From: a virus
Lineage: Duplodnaviria > Heunggongvirae > Uroviricota > Caudoviricetes
DNA: 24,754 nucleotides
IMG/VR virus record: IMGVR_UViG_2671181064_000003
Direction: 5' to 3' (one strand)
Positions within the stretch are counted from its first letter, which is position 1. Each line of letters starts with the position of its first letter. The notes below the pieces were generated by a model. That model saw only the letters and a program-made list of their open reading frames with translations. It was not told the origin of the DNA and searched no databases. The position numbers and the translations under genes were made by a program. Positions 466 to 8,824 of the stretch are shown here, one piece after another.

Positions 466-567
466 ATGAAAATACAAAGCAAGCTAATTGTCTTATTAAA
501 CATTATTATTGCATTTATATTATTTGAGCTTTTAGCTCAAAAATTTGGTTTGAGTACATTATTTTAA
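466..567 (+). CDS. Hypothetical 33-aa hydrophobic peptide (MKIQSKLIVLLNIIIAFILFELLAQKFGLSTLF), possible small membrane protein
   Basis: ATG at 466, TAA at 565-567, translated by hand. One predicted transmembrane-like hydrophobic stretch. No convincing Shine-Dalgarno sequence. Below the 60-aa cutoff of the ORF track. Confidence 0.2.
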   Translation: MKIQSKLIVLLNIIIAFILFELLAQKFGLSTLF

Positions 568-713
568 AGCAAGATAAACAATATCGGGCACTCTAGTTTT
601 TATAATTAACAATTAAACGTCCATAAAATGTTATTTACTTTTCTTCGCTATTGTCATATCTTAATATAGTGGCTTACGCCACTCTACTTTCATCACATTT
701 TGTACGTTTATGT

Positions 714-1414: not shown

Positions 1415-4270
1415 TATGCGAGCCTCACAATATAGTTAAATGCGATGTTTTTGACGGTGTTTTCCGCGTTACCAGCAGCGTTAACGGTGATGGTGTGTCC
1501 ATGTGAACCAATCGCAACAGAGTGCGTATGAGCACCAATACCGACAGTATGCGCGTGTGCACCCGCAGATGCTGCTGTGCCGGACAGTGAGTGTGTATGG
1601 TTTCCTTCTGAAGATGATTTACCTACCCATTGGGAGGTGCCACTGGTTAATGAGCCACTGATACCAACCTGATTAGTCCCGCTAACTTGAGTACTCCCTG
1701 CCGGAAACATTCCAGTAGGTTGACTCCCGCTATTCGTTCTGGGCCCAGTCTGACTATGTTGGTGGGCCCCAGCTGAACTTGTAGAGCCGCTCAGACTGTG
1801 CGTATGCGCCCCGGTGTTATTCGTGGATTTAGTGCCGTAATCAAACGACGATGTGGTTTTCGTCCCCAAATCCGTACTGGATGCGCTGGCGCTGTGGGTG
1901 TGCGATTTAATGCCATCCTGTTCCTGAGACAATACGGCACGACCACTGGCGGGCTTGCCCTTAATCGTCCAGCCACGCATATCAGGGATCACGCCTGACG
2001 GATAAGCGGCTGCAAGTTTCGGGTAAGCAGATTTGTCAAAAGTCTGCCCCTGCATCAGGGCATAACCAGACGGAACGGTATCTGATGGCCACGGGATTGG
2101 TGCACCGACTGGATAAAACTCTGCAGGAGGATGAGCCGAGGTGTAAAGCTGCGCCCACGGCGACCAGTTTGCGTCGGTCGTATCCCGTCGTGAACGAATA
2201 AATGCCGGAGCATGAGCACCGCTTGTACCACTCCAGCCGATGAGTAACTCACCTTCGCCAACGGCTGTCATCCCTTTCAGGTGAATGATATTTCCATACG
2301 CTGTTGGATATCCGTTGTTATACACCTCGTATAACTCAAGACCTGCTGCCCCCTGCGTATTGTCTGTCAGCGCGGCTACCCGACCTTTTGAAGCCAGATT
2401 AACTGATGATACTGCTGTTCCACCTGACGGTAGCGCCCCGATCTCTGATGCCGTTGGCTTATTTCTGGAGTTATAGTCCCTTCGCCAGCCAGGTGAATAA
2501 TCTGTTCCGTGATTAATATAGGTAAACTGGGCGTTGGTTGTTCCGCCACCGCTGGATGTGGTCGGAGTGGTAATGCGGATCGTCATCGCTGACTTTATCC
2601 CCATTACTTCAATGACAGCTCCGGCGAGATGAATATTACCGCAGCCAGTATCAGTAATGATTTTATTATTGCCATAAGACCAGGAACCCTTGCACATCCA
2701 GTATGGATGGTTAAATGCTCCCTGAGAATCCAGCCACTCGATAAACTGTGCAGTCGTCCAGTTTCCTGTTGTTGTGCTTACTGACCCACCGAAGGCACGG
2801 CAGGCACCAATATTTTTCGTAAAGGTGTCTTTGCCAGGGATATCCGCACCGTTCTGATCTTTCTGCAGACGTTTCTCAGCATTGTCATTGGCTGCTTTTA
2901 CTGCCTTTGGCGTTGCCGCCAGCGTTTCAGACGTGCTGTTGGTCGCGCTGCTTAGCTGGATTATCCCTTTCTGTGCTGTCGTTGCATCCTGTGCGGTGTA
3001 TTTCCCGTTAGCCAGGTCATACGCGGCCTTAACGGCTTTTNNNNNNNNNNNCTGCTGACGCCTGTCTGGTCGCCTCATCTTTTGAAGCAGACGCCGATGA
3101 TGCCGATGACGCCGCCGAACTGGCGGACGATGCGGCAGCCGTTTTTGAGGATTCTGCACGGGTTTCCGACGCTTTCGCGTTCGTTTCGGATGTCTTCGCT
3201 GCGGAAGCTGACCTCGCTGCTGCCGTGGCCTGCTCAGTGGCTTCGCCAGCCTTCGTTGTGGCTGTTGAAGCGGATGATGCGGCGCTTTCTGCCGATTTTC
3301 CGGCGGCGGTGGCACTGGCTGAGGCCTGCCCGGCACTTGTTGACGCGGCGCTGGCAGACGACGCAGCCGCTGTTTTTGAGCCTGCCGCAGCTGAGGCACT
3401 CTGTCCCGCTGCCGTTTCAGAAGACCTGGCGTTCGTCTCGGACGTTTTGGCCGCCTTCGCAGAATTTGCAGCCGCCGTCGCCGAGGAAGCTGCGCTACTG
3501 GCGCTTGATGATGCGTTCGTTTCTGATGATTTTGCCGCCTCTTTTGAAGCCGACGCATCCCGGGCTGAGGTGGCAGCTTCTGACGCTTTCGTGGTCGCGG
3601 TGGATGCAGAAGTGGCTGCTGATTGTTGTGACGCTGCCGCATTCGTTTCTAACGTTTTCGCCGCACCGGCACTGGTAGCCGCCGCGCTTTTTGAGGACTC
3701 TGCAGCGGCAGCACTTTTTGAGGCTTCAGTGGCCTTTGTTGATGCCGTTCCTGCGCTGGAAGACGCTGACTGAGCCGACGAAGCGGCCTGTCCGGCTGAC
3801 GTGCTGGCTGCACGTGCTGAATCTGCAGCATCAGTCGCATGGGTTGCCGCCTCACGGGCTGATGTGCTGGCATCGCTGGCTGATTTCTTCGCGGCTGCCG
3901 TGTTCTGTGCCACCGCGGACGCGTTACGCGCCACCTCTTCCACCATCAGCTCAAAACGGCGCAGTGCCTCCGGACGGGCATCATCCTCCGTCATGGCACC
4001 GAGAAAATCATTCAGCGTACCGGGTCGGGAATCTTCATACACGGTGATGGTCCCGGCATGTGACGGCGGGAATCCTTCCACCAACAGAATAACGCTGTAC
4101 TGACCGTACTCAACGTCCATGCTGTAACGCCCGGCTTCATCCGGATTTTCTGAGGCCAGCGTGTTCACCACCACCGTGGTGCTGTTACGTTTTGCTTTCA
4201 GCTGGATTGTGCAGTTCTGTACCGGTTTTCCTGTGCCGTCTTTCAGTACACCTGAAATCTTTACTGCCAT
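1414..4270 (-). CDS. stf: Side tail fiber protein Stf, interrupted by an assembly gap at 3041-3051
   Basis: N-terminal part (ORF 3029..4276, [20 protein letters not shown]...) and C-terminal part (lower portion of ORF 1414..3642, ending ...[38 protein letters not shown]) both match lambda Stf. ATG at 4268-4270 preceded by GGGGTG. The apparent frame change across the N-run is attributed to the gap. Confidence 0.85.
3041..3051. other. Assembly gap (11 N) inside stf
   Basis: Run of N in the sequence. Confidence 1.
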
Positions 4271-4792: not shown

Positions 4793-4838
4793 NNNNNNNN
4801 NNNNNNNNNNNNNNNNNNNNNNNNNNNNNNNNNNNNNN
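4793..4838. other. Assembly gap (46 N) spanning the J 3' end, the J-lom intergenic region and the lom 5' end
   Basis: Run of N. By collinearity with lambda roughly 400 bp are expected here. Confidence 1.
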
Positions 4839-7800
4839 AAAAATAATGGGCGGAATAATAATCTGGCGGTCAAAGTTATGATCATCGCTTATGGTGACTG
4901 TAACCGTCCCGTTTGGTGTTTCCGTGTTACCCCACGTACCAGCCTGTTTCGGAAATGATTTGGATACAGCTTTAACGAAGTCACCTCTGACCTGAGTCGC
5001 CTCCAGCATGCCCTTAATCGTACAGTTTTCATTTACCGTGACATTGTTGAGCGTCCCGGCGTTCGCATTCACACTGCCACTGATATCCGCATTTTTAGCG
5101 GTCAGCTTTCCGTCCGGAGTCAGGGAAAATGCCGATGGATTTCCACCGCTGGTAATGGTGGGGGCCGTCAGGCGTTTCAGGAACACGTCGTTCATGAATA
5201 TCTGATCGCCCTGACCAACAAACATCGGTTTTGTGTTGCCATTCGCAGGATTAACCATCGCAATCCTGTCCGCCGCCAGCAGCACCTGACTCTGCATGCC
5301 GTCAGGGGTGTTCTCAATACCGGCACCAATACCCGCGATATAAAGGCGTCCGTCCTGCATCTGCTGCAGCTTCACAGCCCACATGCTGTTCAGGTTATTA
5401 TTTGTATCAACCTGAACCTTCTGTATCTGCTGAATTGCCGCACTCTGGTCTTCCAGTTTCTTATTGACGGTCTGCGTGATTTCATTGCTGACATCCGTAA
5501 TGGACGTCCTGATTTCAGCCAGGTCAGGCGCAAGCTGACCGTTATCAATCTGCGTCCACAGCTCCTGAGCCAGATGGGTTTTCCCTATCTCGCCTTTGAA
5601 AAAATCCAGATAACCGGATGCATCATCACTCGGCTGACCAACAGCCTCCACGAATGCCGATTTGCCAACGGTGTTCACACTGCGGATATAAAAGTAATAA
5701 TCATGGCCCGGTTTGATATTGATACTGGCGGCTATCCAGTACAGCGCCGTGCCAAGATAGCGTGCTGTGGTTTCAACCTGCCTGATATCCGCAATCCGCT
5801 TTTCCGAGAACCAGAACTCAAACTGTACCGTCGGATCATAAACCGCAAGATGCGGCGTGGCGGTTATCTGAAAATAGCCCGGCGTCAGCTCAATCCGCGA
5901 CAGCGCTGCCGGTGCGGCAATCCGGAACGATACCGACGCCGGATCGCCCTGCTGCCCCCACGCATTTACTGCCCGGACTGTCAGCCTGTAGTTCCCCAGC
6001 GCCAGTTGTGTGAAGCGGTAAGTGGTTTCCGTCGTCCGGGCCGTGCTGACCAGCCGCTCACTGCCGTCATCCGCTGTTACGGTCAGACGGAGCAGGAAGC
6101 TCACGCCCTTCACCACCTTCGGCGTGTCCCAGCGCGCCAGCACCTGATATTCCCCGCTGTCTGCGGTGACTTCGGCAGTCAGGTGCTGCACCGCTGGCGG
6201 CGTGACACCATTCACCGTGCCGCTCTGGTCGCCGTCAAAGTGCGCCCCGTTATCCACGATGGCTTCTTTTTCCGGCACATGCTGCACGGCGGTGATGGCA
6301 TACGTGCCGTCGTCGTTCTCACGGATACTCACGCAGCGGAACAATCGCTGGTGCAGCGTCGGCAGCTTCAGCCCCCACACGCTGTATTCAGCAACACCGT
6401 CAGGAACACGGCTCACTTTTACCTTCACGCCGTCGGTGACGGACTGGACCTCCACGCTGACCGGATTCCCCTGCCCGTCAACCAGGCTTATCAGCGTGGT
6501 GCCGGAGGATGGCAGCGTGATTTCACGGTCGAGCGTCAGCGTCCGGGTCTGGCTGTTCACCGCCAGCACGCGCCCGCCGGTGCGGATACCGGCATAGTCA
6601 TCATCGCAGATTTCAATGACATCGCCCGGTACATGACGAAGCCCTTCAGCACCCACGCTGAAATCCACGGTCTGCGTCTCCAGCAGTTCCGTTTTAATCA
6701 GCCACAGCCCGGCGCGGTGTGCCTGCCCCCGGCTGGTACAGCCAAAGGCATCCATCTTCGTGACGTTACGACCGTAACGGGCAATGGCCTGCGTATCCTC
6801 CACAAGCTCTGTCGCCGTCTCCCAGCCGTTATCCGGGTCAATCCAGTTCACCTCAACGGCATTATGGCGGTCTTTCAGGGCGCTGAAACTGTAGCGGAAC
6901 GGCGCGCCATCATCCGGCATCACCACATTACTGCGGTTATAGGCCCACACCTTATCCGACTGTCGGTCCTGCACGAACGTCNNNNNNNNNNNNNNNNNNN
7001 NNNNNNNNNNNNNNNNNNNNNNNGCGTCTGCCCGTTCCATACCGGCATACAGCGCATCGCCGAGCAGAAATCACTGAGCACATCCCACGCCTTGCGCTGT
7101 GTGGTCAGCCAGGCATTACAGGTGATGCGCGGCTCCGTGCTGCCAAAGCCGTCCGGCACCGACTGGTCACAGTACTGGCCGATGACATACAGCGCCCATT
7201 TATCCACATCTGCCGCACCAAGACGTTTCCCCATGCCATAGCGCGGATGGGTCAGCATATCCCACAGACACCAGGCCATGTTGTTGCTGTATGCCGGTTT
7301 TAACGTTCCGTCCCAGATACCGCTGTATTGCCGCGTCTGCGGATTATAGTTCGACGGCACCTGCAGAATGCGCCCGCGAAGATGATAATTACGGCTCACC
7401 TGCTGGCTGCCGAACTGCTCCGAATCCACCTGTACGCCGACCAGTGCCGTGTTCGGGTAGCACTGTTTCACATCGATGATTTCGGTGTATGACGACCAGA
7501 GCGTTTTGTTCTGCAGCTGGTCTGTGGTGCTGTCCGGCGTCATTCTGCGCATCCGGATATTAAACGGGCGCGGCGGCAGGTTATCCACCACCACCGAGGC
7601 CAGATACTGCGAGGTGGTTTTGCCCTTAATGGTGATGTCTTTTTCCGTCACCCAGCCACCGTTACGCTGTATCTGAACCAGCAGGCGAACTTCAGACGGA
7701 TTCCTGTCTCCCTTTGAGGTGGTTTCCACCAGTGCCTGTACACCGAAGGTAAAACGCAGTCGGTCAATGTTTGCCGACGTGATGGTCCGGGTGATCGGCG

Positions 7801-8152: not shown

Positions 8153-8824
8153 TCAGCGACCAATCACCACAACCTGACCACCGTCCCCTTCGTCTGCCGT
8201 GCTGATCTCCTGAGATACCACACGTGACCCCACGCGCATTTCACCATACAGAACAGGCATAACATTGCCCTGGGCAACCATGTTATCCAGTGAGGAGAAA
8301 TAGGTGTTCTGCTTACCGTTATCCGTTGTCTGTGTGCGGGGAGTTCTGGCTTTCGGTGCCAGCATCTGAGCCACACCGCCGAGCACCATACTGGCACCGA
8401 GAGAAAACAGAATGCCGGTCATACCACCGGCACCAATGGCAGCCCCCCATGCTGCAAGGGTGGCTCCGGCGGTAAAGAATGATCCGGCAATGGCGGCTGC
8501 TCCCAGGACAATCTGGAATACACCACCTGACTTGGCCCCGGCGACTCTGGGAACAATATGAATCACAGCGCCGTCAGGCAGAGCCTCATGTAACTGTGCC
8601 GTTAATCCGGACGTGCTAACATCCTGCCCGGCAATACGCACCTGATACCAGCCGTCGCTCAGCTTCTGACGAAACGCAGGGAGCTGTGTGGCCATCGCCC
8701 GGATGGCTTCGGCACCCGTTTTCACACGAAGGTCGATGCGGCGGCCAAATCGTTGCAAATCCCCGTAAAGGCAGATGCGTGCCATGCCCGGTGACGCCAG
8801 AGGGAGTGTGTGCGTCGCTGCCAT
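8153..8824 (-). CDS. I: Tail assembly protein I
   Basis: 223-aa ORF MAATHTLPLASPGMARICLYGDLQRFGRRIDL... matching lambda gpI. Overlaps the K 3' end by 103 nt as in lambda. Confidence 0.93.
   Translation of the reverse strand: MAATHTLPLASPGMARICLYGDLQRFGRRIDLRVKTGAEAIRAMATQLPAFRQKLSDGWYQVRIAGQDVSTSGLTAQLHEALPDGAVIHIVPRVAGAKSGGVFQIVLGAAAIAGSFFTAGATLAAWGAAIGAGGMTGILFSLGASMVLGGVAQMLAPKARTPRTQTTDNGKQNTYFSSLDNMVAQGNVMPVLYGEMRVGSRVVSQEISTADEGDGGQVVVIGR

Follow-up and report, generated by a model that had tools for sequence, protein, structure and literature searches.

A probable gene for a YncL-like membrane peptide beside the tail-fiber assembly gene of lambdoid Escherichia coli prophages

The AT-rich module beside tfa and its 33-codon reading frame

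The window analyzed here is the whole of a 24,754-nt stretch of viral DNA (Caudoviricetes; IMG/VR record IMGVR_UViG_2671181064_000003). At positions 255–833 on the plus strand it carries an AT-rich module that, in lambdoid prophages, is always found just past the end of tfa, the tail-fiber assembly gene. In the window, tfa (193 aa; annotated as such in related records) occupies 833–1414 on the minus strand and is convergent with the small reading frame described below, while beyond it on the minus strand lie the tail fiber gene and then other ORFs. The left edge of the module falls at 255 in one set of relatives and at ~287 in another, and GC content across 200–800 is 27–37%, compared with ~45–55% in tfa and stf. 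Elsewhere in the window, runs of N (masked bases) at 3041–3051, 4793–4838, and 6982–7023 interrupt the translations of the tail-fiber and neighboring large ORFs. Positions 873–1071 on the minus strand, wholly inside tfa, score 218 bits (E 1e-53) over the full length of IS009, an Rfam "sRNA" family that may simply describe conserved coding sequence.

Within the module, a plus-strand ORF of 33 codons runs from an ATG at 466 to a TAA ending at 567, in the place given by a preliminary description made from the same DNA, and its product would be MKIQSKLIVLLNIIIAFILFELLAQKFGLSTLF. An in-frame TAA at 451–453 rules out a longer 5′ version. The peptide has a predicted transmembrane helix at approximately residues 7–25 that includes Asn12, followed by K-F-G at 26–28. 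Its highest 19-residue Kyte–Doolittle mean is 2.54, starting from residue 7, in agreement with the single hydrophobic, helix-like core that had been noted before; the corresponding value for YncL of E. coli K-12, a small membrane protein to which we return below, is 2.15, also from residue 7. The weak ribosome-binding site and AT-rich context pointed out earlier were likewise borne out. There is no Shine–Dalgarno sequence before 466, the best anti-Shine–Dalgarno duplex in the −20 to −1 interval having a free energy of +0.1 kcal/mol (−7.2 for K-12 yncL), and the GC content of the ORF is 21.6%, against 31.5% for 84–833. When 84–833 was shuffled with dinucleotide composition preserved, at least one ATG-initiated ORF of at least 33 aa appeared in 82% of shuffles (mean 1.6; observed 3). 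Similarly, six promoter-like sites were counted in 1–1500, as opposed to 4.8 in shuffled sequence, i.e., no excess. Since neither the ORF nor the promoter-like features of the window by themselves exceed chance, the case for a gene has to come from the comparison of related copies and from homology only.

The ORF has largely passed unseen by annotation. No PGAP feature lay on it among the matches listed for the core region (roughly 100), and no gene is called there in the phage records mEp332 and ev099. Among ~15 billion proteins, the intact peptide had been picked up by gene callers on just two contigs, and a phmmer search of 1.84 billion representative proteins returned only the peptide itself and a frameshifted variant of it. 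A full-text literature search with peptide and DNA strings found no paper.

We then examined the distribution of the module. Its core (400–780) is carried by 828 of 5426 complete E. coli genomes (~15%), amounting to 942 copies, with no more than four per genome and all of them chromosomal. It is also present in four phage records, including mEp332, PhiR70_1, and ev099, and identical copies of the peptide ORF exist among phage records, one of them in mEp332. The prophages that carry it sit at several attachment sites, beside ybhB, ydfJ, sitD, and yodB. Outside E. coli, a search of 185,579 species-representative genomes with a noncoding anchor from the module gave nothing, and a loose peptide pattern matched nothing beyond chance occurrences in unrelated phyla.

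Among E. coli prophages, the module occurs as three lineages: the window type, the L007 type (~94% identity), and the L005 type (~79% identity; ~21 genomes). In the last of these, a short tfa pseudogene fragment also flanks the module at its other end (2245–2344 in L005 and 1306–1405 in L127–L129), so that the module is bracketed by tfa sequence, which suggests that it moves by recombination within tfa. Locus L149 and its relatives (haplotype h4) are mosaic, with an L007-like ORF region and an L005-like segment at 740–833; thus, recombination between lineages occurs inside the module.

Positions 1–83 of the window are the end of an IS1 element (left inverted repeat, reversed), inserted ~380 bp upstream of the ORF in place of the sequence that relatives have there, and positions 1–99, comprising the IS1 junction and the adjacent 16 nt, are matched at 100% in several genomes. 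The next 69 nt (100–168) recur at 95–100% identity in several hundred E. coli genomes without the rest of the module, some of these matches lying under "capsid protein" annotations, and this appears to be a separate repeated segment. On the related sequence L001, a tRNA-Ser-like fragment (recognized by eye) lies in reverse orientation at 2812–2870, ~90 bp to the left of the position to which the first base of the window would map, which would suggest an old attachment-site remnant. Farther left on L001 are an AraC-family regulator gene and IS fragments, and the region as a whole points to layered insertions in the cargo region of a prophage.

Predicted transcription signals and the 3′ untranslated region

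Upstream of the ORF, a plus-strand promoter-like site at 403–431 consists of TTGACT (403–408), a 17-nt spacer, and TATTGT (426–431), with 9 of 12 consensus matches and a C at −13. This is the TTGACT-N17-TATTGT arrangement of the preliminary description, and its promoter function is judged from sequence. The site reads TTGACT-17-TATCGT in L005 and TTGACT-17-TATTGT in L007, and it is the only promoter-like site common to the three lineages; in L005, it is the sole one within 700 bp. Its core (401–432) has accumulated 3 changes in 32 nt in L005, as compared with 19 in 76 across 389–465. The C preceding the −10 element is found likewise in K-12 yncL. Since a C at this place is seen in many sigma-S promoters, sigma-S dependence of the 403–431 site is a lead worth noting. 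Transcription would start at approximately 438–439, leaving an AU-rich 5′ untranslated region of ~28 nt (438–465; the length follows from the promoter position) that contains no Shine–Dalgarno sequence.

An intrinsic terminator occupies 716–748, with a stem of 10–11 bp (716–740), a CUC(UU) loop, and a U6 tail, and it is a terminator on the plus strand only. It begins 149 nt past the stop codon, so the strong terminator placed ~150 bp downstream by the preliminary description was indeed found (716–745). It is kept in both L005 and L007, where it is the only terminator-like site common to the three lineages, and the substitution G726A lengthens its stem. The earlier suggestion of a short plus-strand transcription unit fits these observations, as the 403–431 site and this terminator, alone among such signals, are shared by all three lineages. 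A further hairpin, at 523–541 inside the ORF, was considered as a terminator or attenuator and discarded, since substitutions in L005 (G526A and G528A) and in L007 (C536A) disrupt it and are not compensated.

Between the stop codon and the terminator, the 3′ untranslated region falls into two parts. The first (568–650, plus strand) is variable, with many substitutions and several indels between lineages; over this part, L005 shows 23 differences in 81 aligned positions together with 10 gap columns. The second (651–715), which the preliminary description had missed along with the YncL-like identity of the peptide, is conserved and comprises a hairpin at 668–683 (AGUGGC-UUAC-GCCACU), a near-invariant unpaired stretch at 684–701, and a small hairpin at 702–715. 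Taken with the terminator, the interval 651–745 is conserved better than any other part of the module (10 differences in 95 nt, as against 52 in 168 in its flanks; Fisher P = 1.4e-4), and it is always coinherited with the ORF. This region folds as hairpin, single strand, small hairpin, and terminator with U tail (z = −5.2), and the stem substitutions C673U and A681G retain pairing only if the RNA is read from the plus strand. The conserved segment probably stabilizes the mRNA or acts as an RNA in its own right, and 651–745 may be a 3′ UTR-derived small RNA. Candidates for a separate promoter of such an RNA (TATAAT at 601–606 and TAAAAT at 624–629) were discarded because they are not conserved. 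On the opposite strand, we found no terminator between tfa and the ORF, and late phage transcription would thus run antisense through the peptide unit.

Frame conservation and kinship with YncL

To assess whether the frame is under selection, we gathered related sequences from E. coli genomes, phage records, IMG/VR, and metagenomes, 87 in all and comprising 54 haplotypes. Those from metagenomes were recruited with a 3′ UTR anchor that lies outside the ORF and were therefore unbiased towards an intact ORF. In 86 of the sequences, the ORF was 33 codons long; the remaining one, a metagenome contig (locus L135), has ATA in place of the ATG. No indel fell within 466–565, with indels present at 465, 566–570, 597, and 616. 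A defective allele, in which an additional A in the A5 run at 539–543 shifts the frame, replaces the last seven residues and yields a 43-aa variant; it was found in two independent assemblies (loci L161 and L162).

The substitutions follow the coding frame. Variable sites in the ORF are distributed over codon positions 1, 2, and 3 as 8 : 2 : 13. Between L005 and the window, 18 substitutions alter 12 codons and result in only five amino-acid changes (V9I, I15F, F17L, E21K, and S30Y), all conservative; when the same substitutions were placed at random, the mean was 11 changes, with a 45% chance of a stop codon (P = 2e-4 to 4e-4). For L007, six substitutions lead to one amino-acid change (P ~0.013–0.015 by simulation). 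The corresponding dN/dS values (NG86) are 0.09 for L005 and 0.04 for L007, in tests that draw on ~24 substitutions among three deep lineages only, with signs of recombination between them. The deficit of replacements is confined to the coding frame of 466–567 and is seen in none of the other five frames. The preliminary description had held that frame-breaking indels or a pattern of neutral drift would speak against a gene; what we found was a frame free of indels over 466–565 and a shortage of replacements.

Other ORFs of 22–48 aa in the module behave differently, most of them being broken in one third to two thirds of the haplotypes, and two short minus-strand ORFs are unbroken but vary freely in sequence. 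Rival ORFs (321–434, 651–797, 700–780, and those on the minus strand) were accordingly set aside, each being either broken in many haplotypes or intact yet freely varying. Because only this frame departs from random substitution and neighboring ORFs decay, we take 466–567 to be a selected gene: it is very probably a genuine, unannotated protein-coding gene, a judgment made from sequence comparison.

We then asked which known protein the peptide resembles. Searches of Pfam, PHROGs, and PADLOC yielded no significant hit, and in NCBIfam the peptide matched YncL alone (NF000537, "stress response membrane protein YncL"). The three variants of the peptide scored 25.0, 23.5, and 22.5 bits against this model (E 1.3e-5, 3.7e-5, and 7.5e-5), the match placing peptide residues 1–28 on profile positions 1–28 of 30. 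These scores do not reach the 35-bit equivalog cut-off, whereas K-12 YncL scores 68.6 bits, which makes the prophage peptide a divergent homologue of YncL rather than an ortholog-grade match. The product of K-12 yncL, read from the K-12 record, is MNVSSRTVVLINFFAAVGLFTLISMRFGWFI, and BLASTP aligned the two without gaps from Met1, with 11 of 28 residues identical (39%), 18 of 28 positive, and an E value of 2e-7. The local alignment score of 60 was higher than that of any of 20,000 composition-preserving shuffles (20.3 ± 4.1); six other small membrane peptides scored 13–29 against the prophage peptide. The positions in common are S5, a basic residue at 6, V/I-V-L-L/I-N at 8–12, A16, L19-F20, L22, and basic-F-G at 26–28. 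As a control, YohP, a 27-aa small membrane protein of E. coli that is not homologous and whose alignment score is at background, matched only its own NCBIfam model and not the YncL profile. A degenerate DNA motif of the YncL type, run over 2.9 million viral contigs, recovered only the family of the prophage peptide and one true yncL. At 8490–8585 of an IMG/VR "viral" contig (L160) lies a true yncL with one substitution (F14V) and an IS1 directly after its stop codon, probably a host flank inside a prophage prediction.

The two genes are alike in some respects and differ in others. YncL (b4598) has 31 aa and the prophage peptide 33, the hydrophobic core lies in the same position (residues 7–25) in both, and each is encoded in a short unit of its own. 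However, K-12 yncL is located between patD and ortT, while the prophage gene is found beside tfa at several attachment sites; yncL has a strong Shine–Dalgarno sequence, and the prophage gene has none. The prophage gene is also far more AT-rich, encodes two extra C-terminal residues, and is followed by a 3′ UTR of ~180 nt with a conserved element and a canonical terminator.

YncL itself has been studied in E. coli and Salmonella. The passages of PMC12542507 that cite Hemm et al. 2008 and 2010 describe a 31-aa small membrane protein that is up in minimal medium, heat shock, and stationary phase. When produced from a plasmid, YncL causes a partial loss of membrane potential and lowers viability, the depolarization being connected with a phage-shock response, a condensed nucleoid, and less protein synthesis, and its production increases sensitivity to pore-forming peptides (PMC12542507). 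The stress-induced YohP is reported to have the same effects, i.e., depolarization and nucleoid condensation (PMC12542507). Furthermore, YncL is among the candidate substrates of the membrane protease RseP (PMC10470546). In Salmonella, yncL lies within the short transcript STnc1110, initially catalogued as a noncoding sRNA; the tagged protein was undetected, but a translational lacZ fusion was expressed and required sigma-S (PMC5437024).

Competing readings and the probable role of the peptide

We consider it likely, from the sequence evidence taken as a whole, that 466–567 is a moron, i.e., an add-on gene of phages, at the far end of the tail-fiber region of lambdoid E. coli prophages, encoding a YncL-like single-pass inner-membrane peptide. 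Three other explanations were weighed against this one. If the ORF were a chance product of a noncoding AT-rich spacer, its persistence would reflect recent ancestry and its likeness to YncL would reflect hydrophobic composition. ORFs of such length are indeed expected by chance, as the shuffles above show, and the missing Shine–Dalgarno sequence, the near-complete lack of annotation, and the existence of a start-loss and a frameshift allele would all agree with this; a chance ORF was a possibility that the preliminary description had itself allowed. Against it, random substitution is rejected in this frame and in no other, the neighboring ORFs decay while this one does not, composition-preserving shuffles never attain the alignment score to YncL, and the YncL profile fails to match YohP, another hydrophobic small protein. 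A chance origin is therefore very unlikely, and frame-specific purifying selection together with the YncL homology instead backs the small membrane-peptide shape recognized at the outset. A regulatory RNA of the Hfq type might alternatively be the main product, either as the whole ~310-nt transcript or as a ~95-nt 3′ fragment (651–748), with the peptide secondary, as in a dual-function RNA, or irrelevant. The nucleotide conservation and stable fold of 651–745, as well as the plus-strand-specific retention of stem pairing, speak for an RNA, as does the history of the Salmonella yncL transcript, first catalogued as an sRNA (PMC5437024). Rfam at gathering thresholds found nothing over 1–833, and at permissive thresholds there were only weak, terminator-driven matches far under the gathering scores, to MicC (22.8 of 90 bits, E 0.82) and Esr41 (15.6 of 102 bits). 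Moreover, no conserved promoter lies just upstream of 651, both candidate −10 elements there being altered in L005; the low divergence could be a recombination tract, L007 sharing derived bases with L005 at 696, 726, and 744; and an RNA alone leaves the codon-position pattern in 466–564 unexplained. We regard RNA as the main product as unlikely.

The preliminary description had also likened the peptide to type I toxins, and the locus could accordingly be a type I toxin–antitoxin pair, in which the mRNA for a membrane toxin is repressed by a small RNA from the same module, either antisense or partly complementary to it. The peptide is small, hydrophobic, and located on a mobile element, much as the toxins Hok, Ldr, TisB, ShoB, ZorO, and DinQ are likewise short, single-helix hydrophobic peptides often found on mobile DNA. 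In addition, the 3′ UTR is unusually long and structured, and the mRNA has a fold more stable than shuffles (z = −4.4); the start-codon region pairs with 639–654 in the minimum-energy fold of the window transcript; and the homologue YncL, when made from a plasmid, depolarizes the membrane and lowers viability (PMC12542507). On closer comparison, these likenesses do not extend to sequence or to regulation. The alignment scores of the peptide with such toxins (18–29) are at the shuffle background, so there is no sequence kinship, and there is no toxin-family match in Pfam, NCBIfam, or PADLOC. A search for signals of an antisense RNA across the start, which had been proposed earlier, revealed that the three lineages have no promoter-like or terminator-like site in common on the minus strand, in consensus scans that an atypical promoter could escape; the minus-strand promoter-like site at 657–628 is destroyed in L005 and altered in L007 and was thus rejected. 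Nor was a long complementary segment found that could act in trans, the best inverted repeats being AT-rich, 25–26 nt long, and 73–76% complementary. The pairing of the start region, which shows one double compensatory change (A453-U654 to G-C), nevertheless loses 3 of 15 pairs in L005 and has a different partner in each lineage, and so it was dropped as a conserved feature. The prophage module thus differs from type I toxin loci in having neither conserved antisense signals nor a conserved fold that sequesters the start codon. No antitoxin is known for YncL. With no support for an antisense RNA, the toxin–antitoxin reading is unsupported, and we rate it as improbable. Of the initial proposal, a small-peptide gene in a short plus-strand unit therefore stands, while the type I toxin does not.

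The preferred explanation, a moron encoding a YncL-like peptide, also agrees with the setting of the gene. Phage morons and membrane-acting lysogen genes are known among or beside tail genes (lambda lom and bor, HK97 gp15, and cor of phi80 and N15), and spots beside tail-fiber genes often hold genes that block receptors or DNA entry. The prophage module resembles morons in being a small insert of differing base composition next to a tail-fiber gene, with a promoter-like site and a terminator of its own around a small gene and a GC content unlike that of the neighboring phage genes. The peptide itself has no sequence similarity to the products of lom, bor, gp15, or cor and is far smaller.

Under this explanation, a plus-strand transcript of ~310 nt, extending roughly from 438 to 748, would converge on tfa. 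The peptide would be translated without a Shine–Dalgarno sequence from the AU-rich leader and would insert into the inner membrane. By analogy with plasmid-made YncL, it might then cause a partial, sublethal loss of membrane potential and a phage-shock response, and, to the extent that effects carry over from a homologue that is 39% identical, it may also lower protein synthesis and condense the nucleoid. The peptide would thereby be a membrane or stress modulator expressed by the lysogen and toxic only in excess, as opposed to one half of a toxin–antitoxin pair.

A bolder extension, which we put forward as speculation and hold to be doubtful, is that a phage-captured and diverged YncL tunes the membrane potential or the phage-shock (psp) state of the lysogen from a dual-function RNA, with late transcription of tfa running antisense and switching the unit off in the lytic phase. 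Were this true, the peptide might keep the DNA of superinfecting phages from entering or make cells more prone to dormancy, and the same transcript would also yield the conserved 3′ UTR-derived small RNA.

YncL is known as a verified small protein; what is new is its unannotated, prophage-carried relative, as judged from sequence. The practical value is modest, in that the peptide is a candidate lysogen-expressed membrane factor beside cargo such as sitABCD and an AraC-type regulator. The gene at 466–567 would nonetheless be a clear example of a conserved small gene overlooked by standard annotation. A second, naturally diverged sequence should also help to find the key residues of YncL, the shared ones including N12, L19-F20, and basic-F-G at 26–28. 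Finally, a phage-carried, selectively maintained relative of YncL in ~15% of complete E. coli genomes would suggest that this helix is useful enough to have been mobilized by phages.
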